A DNA stretch of 60,270 nucleotides, filler included, from Dugesia japonica (taxonomy: Eukaryota): NCBI GenBank assembly GCA_001938525.1. It is 6 parts of 6 records of this genome, joined end to end, with 100 filler letters (N's around TTAATTAATTAA, not from the genome) between each part and the next. Parts side by side here need not be neighbours in the genome. Positions count along the whole stretch, not along the records: positions 1 to 11,598 come from MQRL01186332.1; 5 more parts are not named here. One strand, 5' to 3'. Shown here piece by piece: positions 760 to 45,620 of this stretch; within the stretch, counting starts at the first letter, position 1, and every line of letters starts with the position of its first letter. The notes under the pieces are model-generated. The model did no database searches, was not told the origin of the DNA, and was given only the letters and a program-made list of their open reading frames with translations. The translations under genes were made by a program, and so were the position numbers.

Positions 760-2841
760 TGTAACCGATTGTACTCTGAATTTCTACTCGTTTTCGCGGT
801 TGGTGGTGGTTGAAAAAGATCCTATTAGACAAGAATTCTCATTAGTCAAAACAGAAAGAAAACTAAAGAAATAAGCCATTGTTAAAAATACTTTTATTAT
901 AAATTTACGTTAGCAAAATATAAGCACTTAAATGCTTAGTTATGGATCACAAAATAATTGTTAACTGGATCACAAGTCCACACAATTAAAGTTAATATAT
1001 AATGTTACTACTTCTCTGGATCATTGAAATTCGTAGTTCGTAGAGGAAGTTTGTAGCAGATGGTCTGGAATAGTTGTCGGGATTTCTAAGACAGCGTGAT
1101 GCTCGTTGGGACTTGAAAAAGTTCATTCACGTTGTCACAATTTAGGGTCATTGGTAGTCTAGATTTGGTACTTGTAAATTGGAATGTTTATGTTGTCATT
1201 GGAAAACAATTGGGATGCTTGTAGTTGCTAAAATTTTGAAGATGTCAATACGGGACAGCGGGGAGATTCGCTCGTGATTGAAAATTGTAACTTTCATAAT
1301 ATAGAAACAAGATAACCGGGATTGTACTGCATAATTAAAATTGAAAACTTTGTAATGTCGAACTGGGACAGCTGGGATGTTTGTCTCTGAAAAAAATTGA
1401 TTCGTATTGTCGAAATTAAGAGTCATTGGTAACTGAGATTTGACACTTGGGCATTAAAATATCTGCCGAACAGCCGGGATTAACCGTCGAGATAAGACAG
1501 CTGGGATACCATATCAACACATTAGAATATCGGGGTTATTGACATTTATAGAAAACTAGCAGGGTTTCATATCCGAAGAAGTTAAGATGTCTAGGAAGTG
1601 ATTTTTTTTATAAAAGACAGCCGGGATGCCGCCTTAGTAAACAATTTTAGGAATACACGTGGTTAAGGTTTGAGATTGTTGGGATCTGCTCTGGTTGTAC
1701 TGGGAATTGATGCAGCATAGAACTTCCGAGAAATAACACATAATGCAGTATAGGACTGCCAATAGAAAATATCAATCATAATTAAAATTTATACAAGGTT
1801 CTGATGCTGGACTTAACGATGCTAGAAAAGAACCTTTTCCGATTTCGAGTAGGGCCACTTGCTTGTAGGTTCCGAGATTGGAATGTCTGGAATTCGTAGA
1901 TTGTTTCGTCTCTGGTACGCTTGTTGTGCTAGATAATTTATTTCCAGCGCGATAGGTCTATCTGATTGAAATTGGTTGCTGTTGACTAAGTCGTAAGGAT
2001 GGCTTCTCGGCGGTAAGAGTACTGGAACAGGTGTGTTTTTCAACCTTTCATATTGGCTTCTCCATTTTCGATACTCATTTATTAACTCCTTATTTTCAAT
2101 AATAAGATTTTCATTTTCCTCTTTCGTCTCTCAATTCTCTTTATTTAATTGTTCGTATTTATTTAATTCTGTATCATTGCACGACTTTCTTCATACGCTT
2201 CTTTCCATCTTTTACTCTCAATTTCATAACTTTTTTATCTTGAATTTCTCTTTGTATTCTTTCCAAATGTATTTGTTGAGCCTGGGTTTTGGCCAAATTG
2301 TTATTCTCAATTGTTGATTCTAACATTTTTACTTTTGATTCCACTTTATTTCTGTTCTTTGCTCATCCAATAATGCGTTCAATCTTTTTCGCTCTTGTCT
2401 CATTAACAGTTTCACTTCTTTTAAATCACTTTGTGTCTTTAAACATTGCTGCTTCCAATACTGAACTCCTCCTTTTAATTTGTTAACTATAGCTTTGTGA
2501 CCTTCTTCTATTTGACACTGGGTTGCCTGGGTTTCGGCGACTTGATTCTTTAATCTCATTATTTGATTCTCGTAGTATAATCTAGATTCTATTCTGCAAT
2601 ACAAAATTGTCAATTTTATCATAATAAGGGTTTTAATGATATAATCGATTAATTAGATAACATTTGTGAGCTGGGCTAGCATCATATCTAGCTTTTTATT
2701 CAAACTGATTTAACTGATATTTACCAATTTAAGTTGTTTCAATAATTTACATGTATTAATTTGAATATCTGCGATTATCTCCCGATTTTCCTTCACTTCA
2801 CACTTCTCGTTTAATCAAATCCTTTTACACCACTCGCAACA
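760..2841 (-). repeat. Putative 3' LTR (~2.1 kb) of the Gypsy element
   Basis: On the minus strand a purine-rich GAAATTGAGGAGTA tract is followed by TGTTGCGAG at 2841. The segment ends ...TCGGTTACA at 760, with AATAAA at ~893-898. No 5' LTR is present to confirm it. Confidence 0.6.
1085..1630. repeat. Dispersed GACAGCYGGGAT motif array and ~280-bp-spaced degenerate duplication inside the LTR
   Basis: Motif copies near 1090, 1253, 1313, 1366, 1470, 1496 and 1616; 1090-1175 resembles 1367-1450. Confidence 0.7.
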
Positions 2842-3028: not shown

Positions 3029-4310
3029 TCACCGGTTCTCACCATTGCTTTGGGTGAATGTAAATATTTGTATGTTAACTCTACCAAATTCATTACGAAT
3101 TTTTGGTCGTGCATATTGTCTTTTTCTCGCTTTGACACACAAAATAACTGTAATTACTAACAACATTACTCCGGTTATTCCTCCGACTCCTCCAATGAGT
3201 CTCATGGACCATCCATCATTAGTTGCTGCTATCCTCGTTATCGTGGCTTTTTTCGTTATCTCCTCTAATTGTTTTAGTTCATCTGGTTTGATTCTGATCT
3301 CGTTGGCTCTTGCCATCTTTTACATTAATCTTTCGATATTACCGTTTCCTCTTGTCTGGGCTTCTGATCCTCGGTTTAGTTTTATTTCTTTTTCGTACTG
3401 CCTCATTTAGATTATTTCTCTTTTATTCGTCGTGCTGATTTCGGTGATATTGTTTGCACTACTTCTTTTCGTCGTTTCTGGTTTTGTTATCTCCTGACCT
3501 CGTGTCGTTTTTAGTTTATGGGTTTATTTGGTTATCTTCTCCGATGTACGTGTTGTTATCTCTGTTGTGATTCTTGGTTTTATGACTTGTCTCGTCATTT
3601 CATCTGGTGGTAGCTCCCACATTATCCTATATTCCACTTCGAACCATATACTATATCTCAGATGTATTTCATGTTTTAATTCTTGTTTTAATTCCCTTTA
3701 TATTCTACTAACAAATCACCGTCTGTTCAATCTTTAAGTGATAAATAATGTCCGGTTCGCCTATTTTCTTTTCCTTTTCGTAACACTGACAAATCCACAA
3801 ATTTTCCTGCCCAATTTATCTTAATTCCGAGCGCACTTCTCCTGCTGTAAGGCATGTTACCTCGTTTTGCTTCTAATATTTGTCCTCGTTTTGTCCAAAG
3901 CACTTCATGCACTCTTTCTGGTGTAAATCTCCATAAGTGTGATATACGATACTTGTTTCTTAGCACAGGATCTCTCGTTTCTTCCCCATGTTGGTTTGTT
4001 CCAATCTCGTATTAAATATAGAATGTTAAAATAGTTTCTGTAATAAATACTAAAGATTCTTCTAACTTCGAACATTCCCGAATCTTTGTAGTAACTTGAT
4101 ATCCACGATTCCTCTCGGTAAGGATTTTTATATACTCCTTTGTATTGTATTAATCGCATTTTTTGTGGTTTTTCTCCTGTTATATCAAGATTCACTTGCC
4201 AAGATTTTCTAAATATCTTTACAGTCATTGCGTGACCTTTTACCTGTATGTCAGGTTGTACCCATGTAAACGGGGCTCTATATTCCGTTTCTGTATAATG
4301 ACCTTCTTTT
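3029..4310 (-). pseudogene. Type I membrane protein downstream of integrase (aromatic-rich ectodomain, Thr-rich stalk, TM helix, basic tail)
   Basis: ORF pieces 3905-4228, 3727-3966 and 3029-3316, plus the frame between them (RITTEITTRTSEKITK..KPETTKRSSANNITEISTT). TM segment LIGGVGGITGVMLLVITVILCV is followed by KARKR. Confidence 0.7.
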
Positions 4311-4319
4311 GTGTGTTAT

Positions 4320-5250
4320 GTTCTCTTTTATTCGCTCTTTCATACCTGTCACATAATCGTCTTCATTCATGTACTGCAAAATTGGTGGTTGATATTCCAA
4401 ATCAATAGGCATATTACACTCTCTGCCATACATTAAACTGAACGGTTTTGCTCTTGTTGTTGGATGTATCCCATTCTATATGCAAATAGGCATAAATTCA
4501 AATTTTTATCAGATTCTCGTTGATCCTTTGAAGCATAGCTCAATAGCATTCTTGTCAACGTTTGGTTGAACATTTCTGTCATTCCGTCCGTCTGAGGACA
4601 ATATGCTGATGTTCGTAATTTGTAAATATTGACGAAACTCGTAATTTGTTTCATCAACTCACTCATAAAGTTCTTTCCCTGATCGGTTAAAATTTTCTTT
4701 GGAAGCCCATAACGACTAAACACTTTGTCGCTGCTTTCTGATCTCTTAACGCAAATGCTTCCAGAAATTTTGATAGATAATCTACGACCGTTAAAATATA
4801 TATCTTTCCACTGTCTGTTGGTGGTAATGGCCTAATTATATCCATTGCTATTATATCCATCGGTGTTGCTGGCACTGGAATAGGTTGTAGTGGAACTTTG
4901 AATTTCTTTCCTGTTCCTCTTCTTGCTGCAAATATCTGACATTTTCCCACCCAGGTTTTTATACGTGTCGTTATATGTGGCCAATAATATTTTGCTCTCA
5001 ATGTGGATTCTGTCTTTTTAGCTGACATATGACCTCCTAATATTCCATTATGATAATGTTTCAAAATCTTTGCTCGTCTGCTTTTTGGTATTACTAACAA
5101 CATTTTGTCACTCTCCTTCATCATCAACCATCCATTGACTATTGCGTATTGTCCTCCTCGTTTCTTCAAATGTTCTTTCATGCTTTTATTACACTTAACT
5201 TTACTCAGATCGTAATGTTTTAGATAATCTAGAATTATTTTAATCTCTAA
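4320..5250 (-). pseudogene. Gypsy integrase (HHCC + DDE core), frameshifted
   Basis: HNGILGGH..YYWP..CQ; DIIAMDII.PLP; YILTVVDYLSKF; YGLPKKILTDQGKNF; PQTDGMTEMFNQTL; PFSLMYGRE. Confidence 0.95.
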
Positions 5251-5774
5251 ATCCTCATCTTGATTCTTTTTGAGACCTGTAAATCTTTATTTTCTGCTAA
5301 TATCATACATAAGGTTCGTATTTCTTGATTCATTAACTGCTGAATATTAATCACTTCGTTGTCTTGAATTTTAGTTTCCGCCTTCTCTTCCGGTTCATCT
5401 GTAAATCTCGCTCTTGACATATAATATGCATTTGCATTTGCTTTACTCGATTTGTATTTTACTAATGGTGCATATTCTTGTAGTTTCATAGCCCATCTCG
5501 CCATTCAATTTATCTGTAGTGGTTTATGTCCGACCATTGTAAGCAGTTGATGATCTGTAAATACTACTAGTTCGTGTCCAAGTATCAACTGATTGAAGTG
5601 CTTTACTGCTTTTACAATTGCTAAAATTTCTCGTTCTGTTGTATTGTAGTTATTTTCTGCACCTTGAAAGGTTTTACTAAAATAGCCGCTGAATCGTTCT
5701 CGACCCTCTTCATCTAGTTGACTCAAGACTGCTCGTATTGCATAGCAACTTGAATATGTTGCCAATATAAATGG
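5247..5774 (-). pseudogene. Gypsy RNase H
   Basis: AIRAVLSQ..YFSKTF..AENNYNTTEREILAIV..VVFTDHQLL..MARWAMKLQEY. Confidence 0.95.
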
Positions 5775-6265
5775 TTACTTAAAATCTGGTTGTACTAATA
5801 TCGGTGCTGTCATTAACTTTTCTCGTATTATTTCGAAGGCTTTTTGATGCTCATCTGTCCAAATAAATTTTACATCTTGTCTCACTAATGATTGAATTGG
5901 TTTGACTATAGTTGCAAATCTTTTGATAAATTTTCTGTAATAGTTCGCCATGCCTAAAAATACTTGCACATCATTTACTGTTTTCGGTACTGGTAATTTC
6001 TTACTCTTTTCAATATTCGCTGGATCTGGTTGTTTTCCTTGATCTGATATTAGATGACCTAAATATGTTACTTGACTCTTCGCCCATTCACACTTTGTAG
6101 GTTTTACTCTAAGATTCCACATTCTCAGTCGTACAAATACATTTCTCAAATTTTCTAAATGCTCCTCAAATGTTGAAAATATTAATAAATCATCGATATA
6201 TATCATACTCTGTGGGATTCCATAAGTCACAAAATTCATTGTCCGTTGGAACGATGCAGGTGCAT
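5775..6265 (-). pseudogene. Reverse transcriptase (N-terminal part deleted)
   Basis: APASFQRTMN..IYIDDLLIFS..KCEW..YLGH..FLGMANYYRKFI; the motifs normally upstream of APASFQR are absent. Confidence 0.95.
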
Positions 6266-6296
6266 ATTTTCCTAATTTTGCTAATTTTTCACTTTT

Positions 6297-6680
6297 TCAA
6301 CAGTAATCTGATTGATGGTTATCTTTACCACAATGTATACATCTTGGATGTCTGAATTGAGTTTGACGTTTTCTAACACCATTATATTGATCCAAATCTA
6401 TTTTTTCACTTGGGAATACTTTTGGCATTATGTCTAATCCAATAATACATTCAACCATTAAAGTATTCATTATTTTCATTATATGTGTAAATCGTTCTCG
6501 CGATGTATGTATTAAACAAGATATTTCGCCCACAGCTTTTATTGATTCTCCAGTTATCATCAATAGTTCCCTAAATGCTTTTTCGATTCTTGATTTATCT
6601 GCTTTAGCTATTACTTTCGAATTTATTATTGAACTACTTGCTCCAGTATCAATCATACAATCCAATGTTTTAACAATTAT
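6297..6680 (-). pseudogene. Retropepsin aspartic protease followed by a CCHC zinc knuckle
   Basis: CMIDTGASSSII...CIIGLDIM, then CIHCGKDNHQSDYC (CX2CX4HX4C). Confidence 0.9.
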
Positions 6681-7064
6681 TTGTTATTCTTTGCATCAAC
6701 ACTTTAAATCCTGGAGTTAACACTGGTGTTAAACTGCTTGCTTCATCTTTTCTGATATCTTCTTCACTTTTTGATATAATACTAAAATTTTTTGATCTCA
6801 ATTGTATTGTTCGATTATCATGTTCATCTTTTTCTCTAAGAGTTGGTGGAAGTTTACATTCTTTACTCAAATATTTATCTCTAAATGGTTGTAATTCCTT
6901 ATTTGAATAATACACTGTATTCACTCTTCGCTGTCTCTGCCTTGGGTAACATCTCGATCTCCATGATGATTACGTCTTTTGAGTTCTGCCAAGTCTCTCG
7001 AGCTGTTGTTTCTGTTGATCGTCTACTTCCTGTGATAACTCATCGTATACTCCGAATTCGTCGT

Positions 7065-9160
7065 TTTAATTTCTTTTATCATAATAAGCTCCTTGCCACT
7101 GTGATGCAGAAGGTAAACCCTTGGACTGATTCAATAACCATTGATCATATGCTGGTGCAGATGCACCTTCTAACTTTTCTGGTAACTCTTCATACACTTC
7201 CTCATCGATTACTGCATTATATCCTTTTTGATAGCCATCGGACTATTGCCGTCCTTGTTGTAAATTTCTAATTTGTTCTCTAATTTGTTGATTATGAGTT
7301 GTTGTCGATTCTCGAATCTTTGGTCGATTATTATCTGGTCCATCACTGCCATCATTACTACTATCTTGTCTTTTCCACGGTTTGAATGCATCAAATATTG
7401 TCGTTTTTCTTTCTTTTCGTTTTCTCATTTCCTTACATATTGATCGAATTTGATTAATGATCTGTTCATCTGTTACTCCGATTTGACTCATACATCTCAA
7501 TAATCTCTTCGTACTGTGTAAATCATTTGAATGACTATTTAATACCACCGACTTTGCCCATGCTAGAAATATTCCCATCATCATTTACCAAGATATCTTT
7601 CTCTCTTTCTTATATAAGTCGAAACATGCCAATAATTGTGTCATTATCACTTTGACTATCTGTATTATGAATATTATTCTAAGTAAACCAGCCATTGCTT
7701 GTCCAAAAACTATGAATCGATCCCACATTTCTTCATCACATTTACCGTTGCTGTCTGAAAATGATCTGCGGATAACTATAATTCATAATTTGATCTACCA
7801 TCTGCTGTAAATCCTCCTCCTGCTATTTGCACAAGATTCGATAAAATTTGCATCCACTTTACTGGAAATAACATATGTTCTCTTGCTTTGTCCAAATCAT
7901 CTTGTTGATAAATTCCACCTTCCGCTATATTTAACGGTGTAAATTGTGCTTCACCTTTTAATTGTAATCGTGAATATTTTCTGACTCGTGTTACCGGAAG
8001 TCTCTCTGGAAATCGTACCCATTGATTATTCTGTAATTTAAAGTAAGTTCCAAATAGGTTTGAATAGTTTATCAGGTTTGGAATAAATCCTCTTGGTGAT
8101 ATCACTGTAGTAATTGGCTGCACAAATTGCCTTTCTTTGTTATAAAATATCTCTACTTCATTATAGCATCTATTATGTTCCTTTGGTGCCAACGTTGCAT
8201 CCACTTTTTTACATTGATATATGAACATTACCTCTCCCACAATTCGTCTAAATTATCCTTCTGCTAGCGGTAATAATGGTGACACATTATCTGGATTTGT
8301 AGTTGCTGTTGCCAATTTCGTCTTTAATATTTCGTTATTTAATGTACAATCGTTCCACACTAGATCGTGATATATTTTCTCTATTTAAGCTTGTGTTAAA
8401 TGAAACAAATTATCTATTATATTATTGATATAGAGATGTAACTTCGTATCTTCTGTTGTGATTCCTGCTTTAGTCTTTTCTACACTCGTTTTTGATACCC
8501 ATAAACCTTTATAATTTGTTTCGTTTACTAATTCTTCACATTTCGATTTTGTTTTCTTTCGTGACAAACTGATCATTCCGTTTTTGTCAGTTGACATTAA
8601 AACTACGGTCGTTTCTGCCCAGTGCATTTCGCCTGGTTTTAGTTTCATACCATCATCTACCTTTCCCACTGGTGGCATCGTTTCTTTTTCATCCACTTCA
8701 ATAACCTTTTTACCTTGAGATTCGTCGAAAGCCGTTTCTTTTAGAAATTTCATTGCACATTCTTGATGATTAACATTATACATTAATGTTGACGTTCGCG
8801 TGTCACATAAAAGATCTGACGCTTTACACATAGTATACATTTTCATCATCTGTGTCTTTGTATCGAAGAATGCATCATATTCCTTTAATTCGACTCGATA
8901 ACTTTCTATCGCTACCTTATAACTGGTGACTACTCTTTTTACAGTATAAGTACCTTACGTACACGTTCCATGTTCATCCGATATACTTCCTGCTGCGAAT
9001 ATTCTTGTTTGCATGATCTGTTCACTTTTAGCATTAACAATCTTTCTTTCTGCTACTTGTATCTTTCCAGTCACAAATCCTTCTTCACATTGTTGTCCTG
9101 TTAAATAGATCTGTCTCACTTCTTGTCCGGTTTCGATAAAATATATATTGTCATTTAGCT
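7065..9160 (-). pseudogene. env: Chuvirus-G / herpes gB-like (class III) envelope fusion glycoprotein, N-terminus missing
   Basis: Motif series typical of chuvirus-type glycoproteins: AAGSISDEHGTC, CKASDLLCD, LYINN, DCTLN..LATATTNPD, GEVMFIYQCKKV, CYNEV, FVQPITTVI, GGIYQQDDL..HMLFP, then hydrophobic WDRFIVFGQAMAGLLRIIFIIQIVKVI. Recognised by eye, not by search. Confidence 0.8.
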
Positions 9161-9630
9161 GTCAATGTCAATTATACTAATTTTGTCTTTATTGTCAATT
9201 TTCTCCGTATTTTTAGATGATCTCTGATTTCCTGTTAAATATGCACCCTATTATCGAAGAAAGGGAGTAATAAATTTATTTTACAATTCTACAAAATCTT
9301 ACTTTAAAAATTAAATCAACCTTATAAACAAAAATTAAAATATTCAGACAAACATAAATATTACAATTATTGCAAAAAAAGATAAATAATAAGTATAAAA
9401 TAAAAACTTAAAATTTTTTTCCTCTATTCCAAATTCCTTACATTCAATTCTTTAAGAACTTTCGAAGCTTTTTAATGTTTATTGAATCTATCATGACCTT
9501 TATCTTATATCTCAACTTTTACCAGCTTTTTTTACGTAACGTTAAACTATTTTTTCGTCAGTGTCTTATCTCTGTTTTGTAAATTTCTATTGTTTTACTA
9601 CTAACAAGTAAAAACGTTCTCTATTCAATT

Positions 9631-10042
9631 AGTAGGTGAATAGGAGCGCACAATACCAACCTCCGTGTATAAGAATTTTACATTTATTTGGCGGAAATGA
9701 TTTAATTATTACTCGTATTTCTTTGTGTGTATCCAGTTCTTTTTTTAAAGTCAACTGTTCCCAATTTCTTTTGATGAGTCACCGGCGTGAAATCAACCTA
9801 TTTTTGTTTAAAAAACTAACATTTTTAATTTTTAAGTGAATTTCCTCTAGGATAATATTAAAATTAGAAGCACATTGAGCAATATTAATATTAACATTGA
9901 AAGCTCTCCGGGCAATACATATATTAACATGAAATGCTCCCACGGACAATAAATACATGTACCTTTAAATACACGTAAAATTTCCATATCACTAATAATT
10001 ATCTCTCGAGAGGTATGGTACCGTGCGCTCTAACTACCTACT
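9631..10042. mobile_element. Miniature non-autonomous Polinton/Maverick-type element (412 bp)
   Basis: Termini AGTAGGT...ACCTACT, ~35-bp imperfect TIRs sharing GAGCGCAC, and a perfect 6-bp TSD TCAATT (9625-9630, 10043-10048). Confidence 0.75.
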
Positions 10043-10556
10043 TCAATTTTCTGCCCGAATTCTTTGCTTGAAATTTCTGTGTAGAATTCTAAATCATAAG
10101 TTTAAATGTGAGTTCTACCACTGGCAAAATATCTCTTAAATCTAAAGTTCATGTACCCGGCGACATGGTATTAATCTTATAGTATATTGTACACAATTTT
10201 CTCACAATTACTCATTCTTTTTATGAAATTTTGAAATCTACTAAATAACGATAACATCAGGAATAGTGACCTTCTTCTAATTGGTTGACACTACTTATAT
10301 CACAAATCATGTAAAGTGGTCAACCATTCAAAAGATATACTTCTTTCTATCTTTAATTTTATTAGAGGTATAAGAAAATAATTATTATTTAATATTTTTA
10401 GCCAAGAGAAAGTGAGTTAATTCGGTAATAAGTTTTAATCAGTTCTTTTCAATTATATTATTTCCAAATAGCATAGTTTTAGTAGTAAAATAAACGATGT
10501 CTCAAAATATTAGTTTTGATTTGGAAAATGAATTACCAATTAAAGATTTACCTAAC

Positions 10557-11598
10557 ATGGTGGTAGCGGTAAATACCAATTTTAATACAGAAATGTTATT
10601 GCTGAAAATGTTCTGCAGAGGATATGGTATTGAGAAATTTATCAGGCGGTGTGAATTGTATTTCAAAGCTAAAAACATCAATCATGTGAAACAACAGGAG
10701 AGATTACTCTCCTGTTTGTTAGATAAAGATTTGTTGGAAGAATATGTAAAGACATTGAAAAATGTTGAAGGTTTTTAGACTCGTTTACGTATGGCATTTG
10801 AGAAAGAGAAAGATGTTATCAAAGATTTTTAAAATTTGATTAAGTACAGGAGTGAAATGAAAAAGGTTTTCAGACTCGTTTGCATATGGCATTTAAGAAA
10901 GAGATTTTCAAAGATTTTCGAAATTTGATTAACTATAGGCGTCAAAATGAAGAGATTCAAGTTTATTTTAAAGATGTAAAAGATTTAGTAAAAAGATTAT
11001 TTACAAATAAAGATTTTACTGAGTAAAAAATGGTAGCAAAGATGCTTATATACTGTTCAGAAGAAGTGACTTTGCGGAAACGAGAGAATATAGAAGAAGT
11101 TGAAGAAACAATGACATTAGTAAATTGAGAAGAGAAAACAGAGATCAAGTTTTGGAAGTTAGACGTTACTTGAGAGTTACAAGTCGAAATTATCAGAAAC
11201 CTGCAAATCATACAGTAAATAGATATATGGAGCACAAAAAGGAAAAACAAAATATCGAATATTGGCTATGTCATAAGATCGGTCATAATAAAGCAAATTG
11301 TCCGACCAAAAAAAAGGTAGAGTATTGGACTTGTCATAAAACAGGACATATAAGTCTAGATTGTCCAAGTAAAAAACCAACAAAATGTTTTAGTTGTGGA
11401 AAGGTTGGTCATATTCGAAGGTTATGTCAAGAAGTAAAGTGTAAACGATGTATTAATGGTGGACATAGAGTAGAAGAGTGCTACACAAATTTAAAAATAA
11501 AAAGAACAAGAAATTTATGACTATAGAAAGATCAAGAAACCGATATAATTGAGTACATGCGATTGAAGATGAAGATGTCAATACAAACGATGGATATG
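10557..11598 (+). pseudogene. gag: Gypsy gag remnant with four tandem CCHC knuckles (first two C->Y)
   Basis: MVVAVNT..FCRGYGIEKFIRRCELYF; YWLCHKIGHNKANC, YWTCHKTGHISLDC, CFSCGKVGHIRRLC, CKRCINGGHRVEEC. Confidence 0.85.
10558..10570 (+). promoter_or_regulatory. Primer-binding site, tRNA-Leu-like
   Basis: TGGTGGTAGCGGT directly after ...AACA; the homologous copy at 18289-18301 has TGGTGGCAGCGGT, complementary to the tRNA-Leu 3' end ACCGCTGCCACCA. Confidence 0.65.
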
Positions 11599-11698
11599 NN
11601 NNNNNNNNNNNNNNNNNNNNNNNNNNNNNNNNNNNNNNNNNNTTAATTAATTAANNNNNNNNNNNNNNNNNNNNNNNNNNNNNNNNNNNNNNNNNNNN

Positions 11699-12332
11699 AA
11701 CTTACCAGAAAAATAATTCTTAAGTGAAAATTCATACACAACTGAATCTCGAAGAAAAAAGCAATATTACTCCATCTTTATTATTGGAAAATTACCGAAA
11801 AATCGAGAATATCCACGGTAAATATTTAACCATATAAAATTTAAGTTGCAACAATTTCTGACTCAGAAGGATCTACAAAAATGGGTAGAAGAAGTAGGAA
11901 ATGAACTCAACCAGATGTGCTTGATCCGGATTGAGTTTGCAGTCCATGTTAGTTTATTTTTATTCATGTAATTCTAATGTAATGGGTGGAATTAATAANN
12001 NNNNNNNNNNNNNNNNNNNNNNNNNNNNNNNNNNNNNNNNNNNNNNNNNNNNNNNNNNNNNNNNNNACCAGTAACTAAAATCAACTGAGTAGTTATCAAA
12101 ATTTAGCGAGTACTACGAAATATGAACCCAAACCATAGGGGTACGAGTCTGTACTCGAGCTACGAGTCAACGGCTTCATCAAGAAGATCTGGATTTTTTT
12201 TGGGGACACCAGATTCAAATTCATCGCGAGGTTTTACCTGGTCAATTACCCTAGACTAAATTTCATATAAAGTTCGACCACCCTAGATTTAATCACATAA
12301 GAAATCAACCCAAAAAGGGTAAAACCCCAACA
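11699..12332 (+). mobile_element. 3' part of TGTTGGGG...CCCCAACA LTR family copy
   Basis: Highly similar to 34760-35396 and ends AAAACCCCAACA. Confidence 0.85.
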
Positions 12333-23639: not shown

Positions 23640-25550
23640 AAAATTTCAAATAATTATTAAATCATCCGATTATTAATTTTCTCTCCAAAGATACCACTCT
23701 CAACATAGGAATCCAAGAAAATTTCAGAGACACATTTATGGTAATTCGTTTTCAGAGCTGATTTAAGAATTAGCAATGGCAAAACAAGAGACTAAAAAAA
23801 AATTCGCAATATTCGAAATCAGAGTAAGAAATCTGATAGATAATATCATGAATTCAGGACTAAGTAAAGATGAAATAATTAATGAAGTTCTTTCAAAGAA
23901 GGTGAAAAATACAAAATTGAAAGAAACATTGACAACAAGACCTGATATTAAGATCTCAGAAATAAGATCCCTAGCAAGGGACGTTATCTAAGAATCGCTG
24001 AAATGGAAGATATCTGTATGACACAAAAACTACGAGTTATGCAAATGTAGTGAAACCATACTTGAATAGAGTTGAAAAGGATAGACATAAAATACGTGTA
24101 AATAATTTGCCAGTTAAAAGAGTTTATGAGAGGAACACACAACCAGTGATGATGGAAGACAGAACACAAGACTAGAACCAACAGAATCAATGGAATAATT
24201 GCCAAGATGTTTTTTTGATAGACAGTGAGGATTTCCTGAACCTCGTAAAGAAAAACTCTAAGAAGGACAATTTTATTGCTCTGGATAACATGAGTATAAG
24301 AGATATCAATACTCATTAAAAAATGAATGTTTGATTTACGGCAAGTCAGGTAAAAAATTTAGATCTTGTTTGATTTTTGATCAAGAGCAATTGTACCATT
24401 CAAAAGACGACGATGAGAGCGTGACAGATCATGATATAGTACTGGGAAAAAACCAGAATGACTCCATTGTTTACATTTTGTCAATGGAGTCAGAGTTGAA
24501 AAAGATAAAATAAATCGAAATGATAATGAAAATAGGGAGATGTTTGAAAAAGAAGGTGAGCGAAAATGGAGTAAAGTAGATGTTAATAGAGTAAAGTTAG
24601 AAATGTTATGGGATTCGGGAGATTTGGCGACAATCATGAGTAAAAACTATTGGATTAAAATTGGAAAACCGTTGTTGTTGTTAATAAGGAATGAGAAAAA
24701 CCGTTGGGTTTAGCAGAATTAAGTATACAGTAGAACAAAAAAATCAGGAAAATTAAAGTCATCATAGTTAGACAGATTCACCCAAAATTAATAGGCGGTA
24801 TTGATGCAATGCAAAGTTTTAAAGTAAAATTAACAGCAATTAACATCGAAAATGAGTCTGAAGGTAACAAATTCTGATGAAAATAGAAAGAATAACGCCT
24901 CGAAGTTGTTTAAAGAAATAGATAACGGAAAAATGGTTCAGTTGATGCAGAATTTTGGTGAGGTATTCATGGCTTCAAAGTTCAATATTAAGCAAACAAA
25001 AAAAGTAATACATGAAATAGAAGTTAAAGGAGATATAATAGTACAGAACCCTAGAAGACAACCGATGCATTTAGAAAAGAAAATTGAAGATATAATTAAA
25101 GAATTAGCAAAGATTGGTGTGATCAGCAAGTTTAATATTCCTTGGAATTCTCCATTAGTGAGTGTAGCTAAAATAATGACTCTATAAAAATAAAGTAAGA
25201 AAAAAGTCTTTTTTTCAGTGCCAGACATTCAGTTATTATTAGATTGTTTATCTGGCTCGAAAATATTTTCATCTATTTATCTGAGCCAAGCTTATTACCA
25301 AGGGAAGTTAACTGAAAAATCAAGGGATGTCACTGCTTTCAGTACAAAGGAAGGTCAATTTAGATTTAACAAAATGCATTTTGGATTAGCTACAGCACCA
25401 GCCACTTTTCAAAGGTTAATGCACGAGTTATTGGAACGATTAATTTTGAAAATAGTTATTGCATATCTGAAAAGATATCTGGTGTACGGAAAAACTTTAG
25501 AGGATCACGATAAAACTTTGGAGACAGTCTTTTACAGAATCAGAGAAATT
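23640..25550 (+). mobile_element. Degenerate Gypsy gag-PR-RT remnant
   Basis: EMLWDSG protease-like motif, PWNSPLV, YLSQAYYQ..TAFST..MHFGLATAPATFQRLM; truncated after the RT core. Confidence 0.85.
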
Positions 25551-25554
25551 TCGT

Positions 25555-25900
25555 ATTTTAAATCCCCTTCATTGATTCGTTTATTATATTTGAATACAAT
25601 TCTTTTCAGGTTATTTTGATTTTCAAATTTCGGAATATTGGTGAGCTTTATTGGCATCTTCTGCTCATTAGATTTTAATTCATTTAAAAAGCATTCATAT
25701 TTTTGTGGAGATGATGATTATTTTTGACTTCATCATATTTTTACACTATAATACTGTAAATAAAGCATTTATTATTTTTATTCTGAACATTAATGATTAC
25801 CTTTGATTCTTTAAATGATTTTGGATGTGCAATATACAATCTTTTTGATTTAAAAATGGTATAATGGTGTATATTTCACCAAAATAAATTTAAGCTCCCA
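25555..25900 (-). pseudogene. Second pPolB N-terminal fragment, divergent from the Polinton integrase
   Basis: YIAHPKSFKESKVIINVQNKNNKCFIYSII..KYECFLNELK..MPIKLTNIPKFENQNNL; homologous to 15850-16110. Confidence 0.75.
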
Positions 25901-26099
25901 TATTCTTTTTATTTTCTAACCACTACTGAATTCACAGTAAATTATAAAATTCTACTACTTAACAAGCCTGACAAAAATTACCGCCTAAAAAGTCTATAAA
26001 AATTTCCCCAACTAAATGCACATTAAAAATAAAAAATACTGGATCACTTATGTAGTAATCTTGCGACGAGATTAATTACGTTATGAAACGCACACAAAT

Positions 26100-26720
26100 G
26101 TGTGCCGTCGCCTATTTGCATTAGAAAAATCTTATATCACCTATGTAATAATCCGATTACGTCAACAGAGGGTTCCTACACAGGTGATACAGTGCAACAC
26201 TATCTACCAACTTTTATGGCAAATAGATTTGATGACAATGATATCTAATTCGAGAATTAATAAAGGATACAAGTATATTTTGAAATGTGTTGATGTATTT
26301 AGCAGATTTTTAAGAGTTGTACTGATAAAATCGAAATCTGCAAATGAGATGGAAGCTGCAGTCACAACAATCTTTAAAGAGGGACATCCAGATAATTTTC
26401 AAACTGATTTGGGAAAAGAATTTTATAATTCAAATCATCTCAAGATTAATCATTATTCTGTATTTTCACAATACAAACCTGCATATGTTGACAGATTTAA
26501 TCAAACATTGAAAAATTATTTTATATATACTGGTAATAAAACCTGGATACATGTATTACCGAAAGTAATCGATATTTGTAATCAAGCAAGTCATAGAAGA
26601 TTAAATGGAGCAAGACCTGTTGATATTACATCTGATAAATCAATGAAACTATGGCTTTTGAGACAACAACCAAAAGTAATCAAGAAACCAAAATATAAAG
26701 TTAACCATAGAAGAAAAAGA
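26100..26720 (+). pseudogene. Polinton/Maverick rve integrase
   Basis: WQIDLMTM..NKGYKYILKCVDVFSRF..KSKS..FQTDLGKEFYN..HYS..VDRFNQTLK..W..LP. Confidence 0.9.
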
Positions 26721-26723
26721 AAA

Positions 26724-27733
26724 ATGAGCAAAATAAATAATTTCTACACATTATTACTGAGTAATAGTTGTCCACGTATTCATTTGATAATGAATTCATT
26801 GTTGTACTTGAAGATCCTATTTATTTGAATGAACAAGAGAAAGTGGACTTGATGGACTTTACCTTTATTTATCATGTTTTCAATTATTTAACACATCATA
26901 CATCAAATATGTAACATGTGAAGATTATGAAAAGAATGTAGAAATCATAATCAATAACAAAAAAATCATTAAGGATTTATGATGTTGGCATTAACGTGAT
27001 TGATGAAAGATCATTGTCAATAATATTTAAACATCATGATTATGTTGTAATATTTGACAATTTAGAAGATGCCAAACGATTTTGATTTAATACTTTAAGA
27101 AATAATATAGATTTGATTTCTAACATACAATATCAAGATTTTAAAAATGATGATTCGATTGATGTTGTGAAAATGAAAATAGTGTTTTCAATAGAAACTA
27201 ATAAATTCATATCTTTAAAAAACGAATATTACATATCGAATTTGAATCAATTTGGTAGTTTCATCACAAAAGTGTGCAAGTATATTTTCAAAACACTTAC
27301 TATAAAAAATGATGAACCATTCCAATTTTCGTTGTTGGAAAATGTTAAAAGTGTTACTTTCGATAATTTTTTGGCAAAATCATTAGGTTTAGACAGACAA
27401 ACATTTACTCGGGATTATAGAACTATAGTCCATATTGAAGTCATTGGTGTTAAATATCCAAAATTAATTACTTATCTTCATCAAATGTCCATCTATAGTA
27501 ATAAAGTGGAACCTATAATTGTTGGTGATGTTAATGTTCCTTTGTTGAAATCTGTATGGTTGGAGAATTATGAAGATGATAAAGTAGCTCAGATAATAAT
27601 CAAGAATCACATGTATTTATCAGTTGCCACTTTATGTATAAACAATATAGAAATCAATATCCGAAGTGATAGTGGAGAATTAACTTTGCGAAAGAGTCAA
27701 AAACTCATTTAACTCTACATTTTCGAAAAGTAA
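26724..27733 (+). pseudogene. Polinton minor capsid (penton/PX)-like protein
   Basis: N-terminal FYTLLLSNSC; C-terminal IYSNKVEPIIVGDVNVPLLK..Y..V..INNIEINIR..G and, after a frameshift, TLHFRK. Confidence 0.7.
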
Positions 27734-37760: not shown

Positions 37761-40700
37761 ATGGGGAGAAGTAAGAATAAAAATAAACTGCAATTAAAAT
37801 ATGAAAATCATAATAATGATGATAATATTATGTCGAATAATAAACTTAAGGATGAAGAAAATCATTTAGACGAAAACGAAAGCGATGATTCAGAAGTATG
37901 TTATGTTTTTATTTTACTTTATATAATGCTTGATTTATAGAGTGTATTAAATAATCCAATATTGTTAAATCATATTAACGATATACAAAATGTCAATGAA
38001 AACATTTTGGTATGGAGTGATGAGGATGTCATTGACGATAATAAGAGTAAAGTCTTTCATGAAATGGTCAAAACCGAAATAATTAAAAAATCAATTAAAA
38101 AAAGCGCATTTTCCAAATATTTAAAATCTAGCCTTAAGGAAATCAGTAAAATTAATATATTTGCTCTTAGTGGAATTATTATGAAAAGCGACGACTCGTC
38201 AGATAAGAATAATATTATTTTAAATGAAATATCCAGCAATAACTATTCAACAATTGAAACCAAGTATATTTCATTTAAATGGTAATTAGTGATTATTATT
38301 TTCTCTAAATTTTCAGAAATTCTAAAAGTACAGAAAATTTGAATATTTTAGATTTTCCAGAAGAAATTGAAAGTAAATTTTATTATAATTATTTTGGTAA
38401 ATAAATGTTAATTTAAATTTGAATTAATTAATTAATTAAATAGTAAAACTATTTGTGATAATAATTTTTTAATAATTTTGTTAATAGATGTTGATGCAAA
38501 TTGTCAGCAATTAAAGTTATCAGAAGTAGCTTCTAGTCTCATTGAACGTCCAGTTCGTCGTTCTGGTCGATCTGCAAAAATTAATTACAAAGAAATGTTG
38601 AATGTGCAAATTTTTGAAGTTGTCAGATCATCAGAACAACAACAACAACATAACGATGGAATTTCTCCTAAGAAGAAGAACAATAGAATTAAACGGGAAC
38701 TGTCTAAACGGTTGTCGATAAATAATGAATTGGAAGATGATAATAATTTAGTTGGTGAAGAAAACGAAGATAAGAAAATTAGGAAAAGTGAAGTTGAAAG
38801 AAAAGAAGTGGATAATGTTTCACGATTGGATTGGTGTAATGAAGAGGAGCAAGTGAAACCATTGAGTGAAATAGCAGGGGATTATCGAGGAGAGCAGAAT
38901 GAGTGCGGTGAGTCGTCATCATCACCAACAACAACAACAGCAACAGTGAAACAACAGTTATCGAAAGGAAGCGTGACGGTAACGGCACACATAAAGAAGC
39001 GGTTCAGCAAGGATTTATCGAGACAGTGCGTGTTGTGCCAGAAACCAGTGATGGGCAGCAACAGGTTCCTCAATTTGTGCTACAAATGCATGGTGGCATC
39101 ATCAAAGATCATTTTGAAAATGGGACTGAACGATAATTGGAGCGAGGTTGCTAATTTGTTGGTGTGTCTCGATATACCACCGTGTTACGATAAGAACAAT
39201 GGAGATGATGATGGGGATCTGTGTGACGCGTGCCAAGTTCAGAATCTAATCAGCAAGCGTGTCGAATGGGGGCCAGATTTCAATTTTATGAGTTGTGTGT
39301 CGCTGGAACAGTTGCGCTCGACAGACTCTGTTAGGAAATCTCGATTAGCGAGTGAGAAACAAATAGAATGTTGGTTGAACGCATTCCAGGGCGCGGAGGA
39401 CTGGAACAAGTCGTGCATATTGGGGGAGAATCAACCTCTGTCGACATTATGCAAATGGGATATTCGATATTTCCAGCATTCCTCGACATTTCCACGTGGA
39501 ACTAGTTGTGATTTGTGTCGATCTGTACCAGCAGAGACGAGCAACCGTCTCTATTCGGTCTTACCTGCAGTCACTGTCGACAGGGAGGAGAACAAACATG
39601 CAATAGTTTGTCACAACTGTCTGCTGCTTGCACACCGCGCATACAACTCACGTATTGATCGTCCCCAATGTTCCTCTCCGTGCGCAGATCTCACAAACTG
39701 TTCGTTGTGCCTTCTCAACCGTCTGGGTGCTCTCTGCCCACTCAGTTCCATCAAATATCGATATTTCCTGAGAACAAGCAGCTCCTCAGCGAGTATGTGC
39801 GAGATCTGCATCCGCAACGATTCGAATCTGATAGCGGTGATCCGCGGGGGCAACCGCGTGTGCCACATTTGCATTTGTCGGATCAAATTGTTCCATTTCA
39901 AGCAGTCACCATCGCTGCCTCCGTCTGTTCCTCCTGTTCCTCCTGCTGCTCCTCCTGCTCGTTGTGAACTCGGGGAATCGTGTTCCATCAGTAAATGTGA
40001 CGCATGCTTAGTGGATTTGGCGGGCAGAGTTGTCGATGTGCACCAGATCATCTCGCATTTCCACAAATGTGACTACAACATTACCAGTAGCACCAGCGGT
40101 ACCAGCGGTACCAGCAGCAACAATCTGATCGCGAGGAAATCTACGAAACGATCAATAGAAGAGAGTAATCGAGACGATCCGAGTGGAGAAACTAAATCAA
40201 AGCGGCAATACACAGCTCCATCGGCAGCAGCAGCAGCAGCATCATCATCATCATTGTCAGTGAATGTGAATGTGAATGTGATCCCCAGTTCCCCCCCTGC
40301 CCCTCCATCTCTCAATGATCACCACCAGCAACAGCACCAGCAGCAGCACAGACCACGCAGGATCATCAAGAACACACAATTCAATGACTTCATTGTCGAC
40401 AAGTGCTTGCTGCGCAAAACGATGAATGATCGAGTAGTGCTCACTTCCAGTTCCTCGACAATGAATACTCAGAGAAAATTGGTGGCAACTGAGGGTGAGG
40501 GTGAGGGTGAGCATGAGCATGAGCATGAGGCATCACTGGGTGTCGTTATTGATCAGCAGGAGAACCAGGAGAAACTTGGTGATGGTGGCAATGACAATGA
40601 GGAGGAGGAACATGAGGAACAGGAAGAGAGCAAGTGTGGGAGTGGCGCAATTGATAGTTATTCAGAGAATACTGCTGATGGTAACCAACAAGAACAACAA

Positions 40701-41714
40701 GAACAAGAACAAGAACCACAAGTTATTTCTGCAGCAAATCTGTATCAACAAATGATCACCAGGAAGAACGAAGATAGACCAATAGGAAGCGCAGTAGGGG
40801 AACCAAGCGAGGAAATGCCTAATAATAATGAGGAAGTGTCATTGTTGAAACCGTGTCGACGCATCAAGCAAGCGATGCCAACAGTAGTTCAAGTGACCAA
40901 CAGAAATGACCAACAACAACAGATTGTGAGTGGAGCAGGAACAGAAGGAACACCAATTACAGAGAGCATCACTAGCAGCACAGGAATAAGCACAGCAATG
41001 CTGTCACGGAACACAAATGGACCACGAGTGAAGCAAGTCAGCAGACAACATGTGAACCATGGTGAGTGTTGTAGTTGTAGTTGTGCTCTGCCAGCAGCCA
41101 GCAGTACAGAGGAACCTGTCCACCAACAAGAACACCAGTGCTACTGCTACTGCTCTCTCATCTACTGATCTTCTNNNNNNNNNNNNNNNNNNNNNNNNNN
41201 NNNNNNNNNATATATATATATATATCTTCTTTACCATTTCCTATCTTCTTTATCATTTCAGCTGACCTCAATCTCGACATGCAATCTCGACAGAAGTGCG
41301 TGATCAAGCGAGGCAACCGAATTATCAAGAAGCCTGAGAGCATGTCTAGCTACATCATGGACTATGAGGACCACAGAGCAGGACGGAGAATCTACGAGAA
41401 TGATGCTGAACATGATTATGAGAAAGATACGCGATCTGAAGACAAGGAGTCCTCTGAGGAGGAGTTGAAGTTCCACGCTGACAAATTAGCCTCATTTGGT
41501 AACCAAACATCAACAACAACAGCAGCAACAGGAGGATTGGACAACAACAGTAGCGATATGAGATGTGGCGTGTGCACCGGGTGTTCACGCAATCGGTGCT
41601 GCGGTAAATGTGATCCGTGTTTGTGAGTTTGATTGGTTGACATTTGTTATCAATATTTATCTTTCTTCATAACAGATTGAACAAATCCCAGAGGAGGAAA
41701 ACAGAGACTTGTGT
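37761..41714 (+). CDS. Cys-rich nuclear protein: three nuclear-receptor-like Zn modules plus CXXC zinc finger (possible KMT2/Trithorax-like N-terminus); 3' end missing
   Basis: Phase-compatible exons 37761-37895, 37941-38263, 38317-38372, 38488-41061, 41262-41622 and 41676-41714. CXXC motif: RCGVCTGCSRNRCCGKCDPCLLNKSQRRKTETC. Confidence 0.85.
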
Positions 41715-45099: not shown

Positions 45100-45620
45100 T
45101 GACGNACCTACAAGAAATCAAGCTCACTTGCTTTGTCGCTGCACATTACTGTACAACCTCACTCCAGCATTGGTAGCTGTACTATAATAAACTGTGAAGG
45201 AGAACTAATTGTTAAATCGATAGTTACTCACAGGCAACCCGTCAAACATTACCGATTCCACACACATGGATTACAAAAAAAACAAGTCCGAGGAAACTGA
45301 GATGTAGAGGATGCAAAGGTAGAGATCAGGAAATTCCTTGATGGAAAGATCATCATAGGAATAGTTGTTTTCTAAATTTCTTGAAGCAATCGTATCTTCC
45401 TACTCCAGAGTCCTAGGAATCAGAGACCTTGGAGGAGCAAAATGCATCGAAAAGTTAGGATTCCAAAAATGAAAAGAAGCTTAAAGAATAGCTTACCACC
45501 AGAATCAAGTTTTACACAGAGAATATGTGACATTGACCATTGATCTTCAATCTGAGACCCAACCAAATCGATTCAAAAGAGTTTTATAAAAATACGTAAT
45601 CAATGGGAAGATCACATTAC
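45100..45620 (+). pseudogene. DEDDh (REX4/ISG20-like) exonuclease-fold remnant
   Basis: IGSCTIINCEGELIVKSIVTHRQPVKHYRFHTHGL..DAKVEIRKFLDGKIIIG..IRDL; intronless, with stops. Confidence 0.6.

Follow-up and report, generated by a model that had tools for sequence, protein, structure and literature searches.

The window analysed here is a stretch of 60,270 nucleotides of the Dugesia japonica genome (assembly GCA_001938525.1), composed of short contigs joined by linkers of N. Its first contig (1-11598) carries, on the minus strand, the remains of a Ty3/gypsy retroelement in which an envelope (env) glycoprotein lies ahead of pol. The element is richer in G+C than the window as a whole (34.1% versus 27.8%), which also contains long ATT microsatellites. 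With stops read as X, the minus strand reads in the order env ectodomain, membrane anchor, tail, protease (PR), reverse transcriptase (RT), RNase H (RH) and integrase (IN). We interpret the stretch as a broken, 5'-truncated Ty3/gypsy copy with env ahead of pol, likely Burro-like and likely once encoding a single gag-env-pol polyprotein, and give this interpretation a probability of roughly 0.85. Its features, with the evidence for each in parentheses, are as follows.

7728..9167, minus strand: env ectodomain, a chuvirus/gB-type (class III) fusion glycoprotein with its 5' end missing and with in-frame stops (PF24664, identity to relatives, cysteines, BFVD)
7504..7760, minus strand: env membrane-proximal region and transmembrane anchor (about 7713-7621), in a frame that differs from that of the ectodomain (PF24664, hydropathy, tblastn)
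6670..7503, minus strand: predicted cytosolic tail or linker from anchor to protease, decayed yet coding-like (stop counts, anchor-protease distance)
6420..6683, minus strand: retropepsin (aspartic protease) with DTGA at 6650-6639 (PF00077, E 2.8e-04; our own profile, E 4.9e-15)
6300..6341, minus strand: CCHC-type zinc knuckle directly after the protease, adjoining an internal deletion (motif scan)
5472..6263, minus strand: C-terminal half of RT (YIDD at 6200-6189), connection, and RNase H with a degenerate motif (PF00078 positions 124-203 only; PF17919, E 4e-32; PF17917, E 3e-29)
4326..5286, minus strand: integrase zinc finger and core, spread over three frames (PF17921, E 7.7e-16; PF00665; tblastn)
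3029..4315, minus strand: decayed post-integrase frame, beta-rich, with a Thr/Ser/Pro-rich stalk (about 3613-3383), a transmembrane segment (3190-3134) and a short basic tail (stop counts, hydropathy, depth)
1822..2652, minus strand: coiled-coil-like open reading frame (ORF) remnants, possibly an accessory gene of the element, though this is uncertain (ORFs, multi-copy depth)

The glycoprotein is supported as a class III (chuvirus/gB-like) fusogen, which is what the initial annotation had proposed. Positions 9173-7761 match the Monjiviricetes_fusion family (PF24664) at E 1.1e-38 over profile positions 97-511 of 653, and positions 7800-6670 match profile positions 538-600 (E 9.7e-06); tblastn locates one more change of frame within env, near 7730-7760. 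The ectodomain frame contains 4 stops in 457 codons; the alternative frames contain 42 and 36. It is 30-39% identical to its nearest relatives, and all nine of its cysteines fall in alignment columns where every aligned relative having a residue has Cys. With an AlphaFold model of env, itself poor (pLDDT 46), a BFVD search produced 16 matches at or below E 0.001 (best E 2.6e-12); the 15 that are named are without exception glycoproteins of negative-strand RNA viruses, chu-like or related. A PDB sequence search with the env alignment matched only proteases, from the longer alignment rows. The length of about 700 codons first assigned to the glycoprotein was too great: its proper end lies near 7500, after about 555 codons, and position 7065 is merely one stop in the tail. 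The signal peptide and first ~85 residues were not found in 9175-9520, where a frameshift-tolerant profile scan scored 18 against shuffle means of 16-19 (in the same scan the positive control reached 30, and its shuffles 17 at most).

Downstream of the ectodomain, the anchor and tail together hold 4 stops in 346 codons, compared to 25 and 38 in the other frames (composition predicts 8.2%; binomial p 5e-09), and the tail alone holds 3 in 270, compared to 14 and 34. The description of a tail that runs in one frame up to the protease, interrupted by scattered stops, is thus upheld, as is the single frameshift near 6680: the protease and its DTGA motif lie in a different frame from the tail, whose own frame has a stop at 6672. 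The anchor-to-protease distance is 352 codons, within the 125-385 found in 13 natural polyproteins, and, as first reported, no capsid-like or other gag was recognised between env and protease in this copy.

An intact element would have intact ORFs flanked by long terminal repeats (LTRs); this copy has stops, frame breaks, deletions and no LTR pair, and is a dead relic rather than an intact member. Several of its other frame breaks lie inside conserved domains. The protease motif stands 129 codons from the RT motif APxxFQR, compared to 380-412 in relatives (motif found in five of seven), indicating that ~250 codons or more are missing around the RT start. The N-terminal half of RT and a dUTPase-like region are missing, and the C-terminal part of integrase was not detected. 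Among the 14 relatives scanned, CCHC knuckles are absent from the part after env, which sets apart the zinc knuckle at 6300-6341.

That env is fused to pol as an Env-Pol polyprotein in intact members is well supported by natural relatives. A phmmer search with env against 1.8 billion representatives returned 462 matches at E up to 0.001, the best 150 of which were examined. Eleven of the best 19 (E up to 4e-25) extend at least 188 aa past env, and all 11 carry an in-frame protease, with one to four copies each; no protease was found in the 131 more distant of the 150 matches listed. Six natural ORFs encode env-PR-RT-RH-IN without a break (P0007, P0012, P0020, P0023, P0155, which is a cluster mate of P0009, and L001, a 3426-aa ORF on a metagenome contig); P0005 is a further natural example of the fusion. 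Our protease profile was built from 10 of the relatives and is circular for them; Pfam provides the independent check, with the P0011 and P0020 proteases falling below its curated cut-off. These natural fusions support the proposed env-before-pol, Env-Pol arrangement.

The RT-RH region of the window is 40-47% identical to that of seven env-fused polyproteins, so that pol leads to the same relatives as env. This identity, the PR-RT-RH-IN order and the gypsy-type Pfam families sustain the original assignment of pol to a gypsy retroelement. In a quick env tree of 43 rows (25 of its 31 distant rows were drawn at random), a check that the initial annotation had suggested, the window falls in a 10-row clade (SH-aLRT 98) in which 7 rows are protease-fused. 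Further searches found relatives in none of 600 pattern matches among viral contigs and none of 18 in prokaryote genomes; metagenome contigs yielded at least one among 594 pattern matches listed, a protein word-index search gave one match among 3937 candidates, and four short motifs from published planarian env rows were absent from all proteins searched.

Several of the related proteins are unusual in their own right. P0012 (HBK71150.1) is a full env-pol polyprotein filed as a hypothetical protein of a Flavobacteriaceae metagenome-assembled genome, and is likely animal sequence that binning assigned to a bacterial genome. P0155, P0008, P0005 and P0007 carry 7, 4, 3 and 3 protease copies, respectively; some of these follow integrase, and C2H2 fingers and ankyrin repeats separate the copies. 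The distant chu-like glycoprotein P0036 has an RNase H-like sequence in frame directly after env, with no protease or RT.

Contigs from three DNA runs of the host species (X1, X3 and X7) were compared by summed depth, which is not copy number; they nevertheless make it plain that the family is repetitive and that its copies carry env. Depth sums are similar over env bins and pol bins (13,000-52,000 in X1), and just upstream (9436-9799) the depth falls to 28. Most of the junction depth contributed by related copies lacks the frame break in X1 (3637 of 3713, 98%) and X7 (1248 of 1454, 86%), and contigs from independent runs cross the tail/protease junction. Multi-copy depth extends to the post-integrase frame (3029..4315) and the coiled-coil-like ORF (1822..2652). 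In a quarter of a poly-A RNA run from the same species, env-pol depth reached only 2.6 and 1 of 2000 placed reads matched at 99% or more, so nothing shows expression of the window copy.

An alternative interpretation is that env and pol were adjacent yet separately expressed, the frame change near 6680 being either a genuine programmed frameshift or the border between two ORFs, like that of errantiviruses with three ORFs. The window does change frame there, with the tail-frame stop at 6672, and in X3 only 253 of 1651 depth units at the junction (15%) are without the break. P0010 and P0018 end ~60 aa after the anchor and could be either truncated fragments or env ORFs in their own right; PMC13524379 speaks of three ORFs. 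Set against this, every one of the 11 long close relatives is fused in frame, the break is missing from nearly all X1 and most X7 junction depth, and the sister of P0010 in the env tree is the fused L001 ORF. Frame breaks are also cheap in the window copy, given that several others lie inside conserved domains, and we consider separate expression improbable. Chance nesting or misassembly, in which an endogenised chuvirus-like glycoprotein gene came to sit beside an unrelated gypsy pol, is less probable again and largely refuted. Such an origin would suit a window made of short contigs with N gaps, a copy with internal deletions and the lack of any listed run contig spanning the whole stretch; but env and pol share nearest relatives that are themselves fused, contigs from independent runs cross the junction, and the stand-alone chu-like glycoproteins (~650 aa) are far more distant and fall mostly in the other half of the tree.

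It is about equally hard to credit that Env-Pol alone was the unit of a gag-less lineage, its capsid borrowed in trans or from a gag on the opposite strand. No gag was found 5' of env in the window copy, and in the ORFs called for P0007, P0009, P0020 and P0155 the part ahead of env lacks a knuckle. A decayed, knuckle-bearing gag does lie 1.3 kb away on the plus strand (10494-11520); it has several CCHC knuckles and very high summed depth in the DNA runs, and clear RNA depth, which comes from related copies, is seen nowhere else in the contig. Given its opposite orientation and a depth roughly ten times as high, we take it to belong to another repeat and rejected it as part of the element. The window copy is cut inside env, so anything upstream of env, where depth drops as noted above, was lost too. 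Of the 14 relatives scanned, 6 have CCHC knuckles ahead of env in the same frame, with Retrotrans_gag in P0017; a BCL2-like (BH2-like) motif lies just before env in 3 of the 14, and P0010 gives a weak Pfam Bcl-2 match (E 1e-03). The idea of a lineage that does without gag is not supported by these data.

The interpretation that we favour, a broken env-before-pol copy of a once single polyprotein, also has evidence weighing against it beyond the X3 depth and the short P0010 and P0018 rows. The other 8 of the 19 close relatives (P0010 and P0018 among them) stop before the shortest anchor-to-protease distance (125 aa); they, too, may be ORFs of their own or fragments, and cannot decide fusion. 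No intact copy of the window's exact family was seen, its nearest relatives being the 30-39% identical env proteins described above. A PDB search with the poor env model gave no match at E up to 0.001, though herpes gB fills its first six rows. No LTR-like pair, primer-binding site, gag or BCL2 was found in the element's own contig. The label "Burro-like" refers to the described layout, and the papers drawn on here show neither particle formation nor fusion activity for any member.

Five relatives (P0007, P0012, P0020, P0155 and L001) extend past integrase in the same frame with a module made up of a signal, an ectodomain and an anchor; in P0007 and P0155 it includes a Thr/Ser/Pro-rich stalk. 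Besides env, RT, RNase H and integrase, the 5'-open L001 ORF (2-10282, plus strand) encodes three proteases and two additional signal-ectodomain-anchor modules, of which one lies between proteases and the other after integrase. Since each comes as a signal-plus-anchor pair, the enzymes would stay cytosolic. The post-integrase frame of the window (4315-3029) has 10 stops in 428 codons, compared to 29 and 33 in the other frames, and shares its position and plan with the modules of P0007, P0012, P0155 and L001, indicating that it is probably part of the element. Neither tblastn nor profile searches found homology between it and the relatives' modules; it has no Pfam match of note, and its Atlas scores reach only 0.79. 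The L001 module gave FN3-like Atlas rows with scores under 0.9, and its model (pLDDT 36) placed FN3 proteins at the top of a PDB search with a best E of 0.016, below significance. Similarity between the coiled-coil-like ORF (1822..2652) and the last L001 ORF was not significant, with 4 of 40 shuffles scoring as high. In a thin literature search, no description of a post-integrase module appeared in the review section of PMC6431247, in the main text of PMC13524379 or among the results of a full-text query.

We raise, tentatively and as a rather unlikely scenario, that a captured FN3-like type I membrane protein after integrase might be the receptor-binding partner of the gB-type fusogen, with both made in one polyprotein. 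Herpes gB has such partners in gD, gH and gL. According to the discussion in PMC13524379, how gB-type errantiviruses enter cells is unknown, given that herpes gB needs partner glycoproteins, and the post-integrase modules of the relatives offer concrete candidates for that role.

The L001 contig also encodes a DEDDh-type exonuclease in an ORF after the polyprotein (10617-12107, plus strand; PF00929, E 1.4e-05). A different contig of the window contains a decayed homolog (45148-45448, plus strand; tblastn E 1e-05), and a segment before env in P0020 looks similar by eye.

The topology of these proteins suggests that the enzymes are tethered to the cytosolic tail of env. In intact members, translation of one long mRNA would initiate at gag, an internal signal sequence would direct the env ectodomain into the lumen of the endoplasmic reticulum, and the env anchor would return the chain to the cytosol, where PR-RT-RH-IN would be made as the glycoprotein's cytosolic tail. 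Cleavage by signal peptidase would then part gag from Env-Pol, with the two present at 1:1 on one membrane. Where env trimers gather for budding, their proteases might be brought together, allowing them to release RT and IN inside an enveloped particle that would fuse with another cell, much as Drosophila gypsy passes from soma to germline. Pol could in this manner be packaged via the Env tail instead of through a Gag-Pol fusion. The window copy itself is incapable of such a cycle.

Other parts of the window hold further features. Decayed gypsy RT and integrase fragments, and an integrase with a second ORF, occur at 24834-25619 (plus strand), 52548-53203 (minus strand) and 26076-27712 (plus strand); the integrase with its second ORF resembles a Polinton-type element. 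A 910-aa Cys-rich, low-complexity ORF (38436-41168, plus strand) lies in a GC-rich island (~47% GC) and stands out from the remainder of the window.

The glycoprotein belongs to the same fusogen family as those of chuviruses and other Monjiviricetes (PF24664, BFVD), which differ in being stand-alone proteins of ~650 aa with ~20-31% identity over part of the length. The element is also distinct from Anakin, a Bel/Pao element, as its pol matches gypsy-type families. Membership in that group was rejected: Pfam gives gypsy-type RT_RNaseH and Integrase_H2C2 and none of the families that we take to mark Pao. Two further papers, in the parts drawn on here, provide background only (PMC12440569, PMC11410931).

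The closest described counterparts are Burro/GYPSM1, giant gypsy-like LTR retrotransposons of dugesiid planarians that exceed 30 kb and have long LTRs (PMC6431247). According to the review section of that paper, Burro elements carry an env homologous to mononegavirus fusion glycoproteins, in frame between gag and pol and thus ahead of PR-RT-RH-IN; cargo upstream of env includes gag, Smc, BCL2-like and other modules, a dUTPase-like domain lies between PR and RT, and decaying fragments with stops and frameshifts occur in a third planarian species (PMC6431247). The window's relatives likewise have BCL2-like, ankyrin and gag-knuckle modules. The window copy differs in that just the part from env to integrase and some sequence 3' of it survive, within an 11.6-kb contig. 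It also has a long tail, a post-protease CCHC knuckle and a post-integrase stalk-plus-anchor, the last of which is not listed in that section.

A similar arrangement is found in the GAG-ENV-POL errantiviruses with gB-type env from nematodes, bryozoans and flatworms, six of them from Schmidtea mediterranea (PMC13524379). Of the features that define this group, the window shows a gypsy PR-RT-RH-IN, a gB-type env with conserved cysteines and an anchor, and env 5' of pol; it is like the Platyhelminthes HSV/gB-type members (C1a cysteine group) in combining a gypsy pol with a gB-type env before it (PMC13524379). By eye, the N-terminal half of its env is most similar to Smed_errantivirus_5 and Smed_errantivirus_6, with which it shares motifs and cysteine spacing. 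Those elements are intact and often multi-copy, whereas the window copy is decayed. The main text of PMC13524379 contains none of the words "in-frame", "polyprotein", "Burro" or "fibronectin", and so is silent on fusion and on additional membrane modules.

The layout is already described: an in-frame env between gag and pol was reported for Burro in 2019 (PMC6431247) and GAG-ENV-POL errantiviruses in 2026 (PMC13524379). The window sequence alone, as a dead copy of a described layout, matters little. Together with its relatives, it indicates that elements with env inside the polyprotein form a diverse clade (a dozen natural fusions, 27-36% identical in env), and to this already published env-before-pol fused layout the window copy adds a dead new member.

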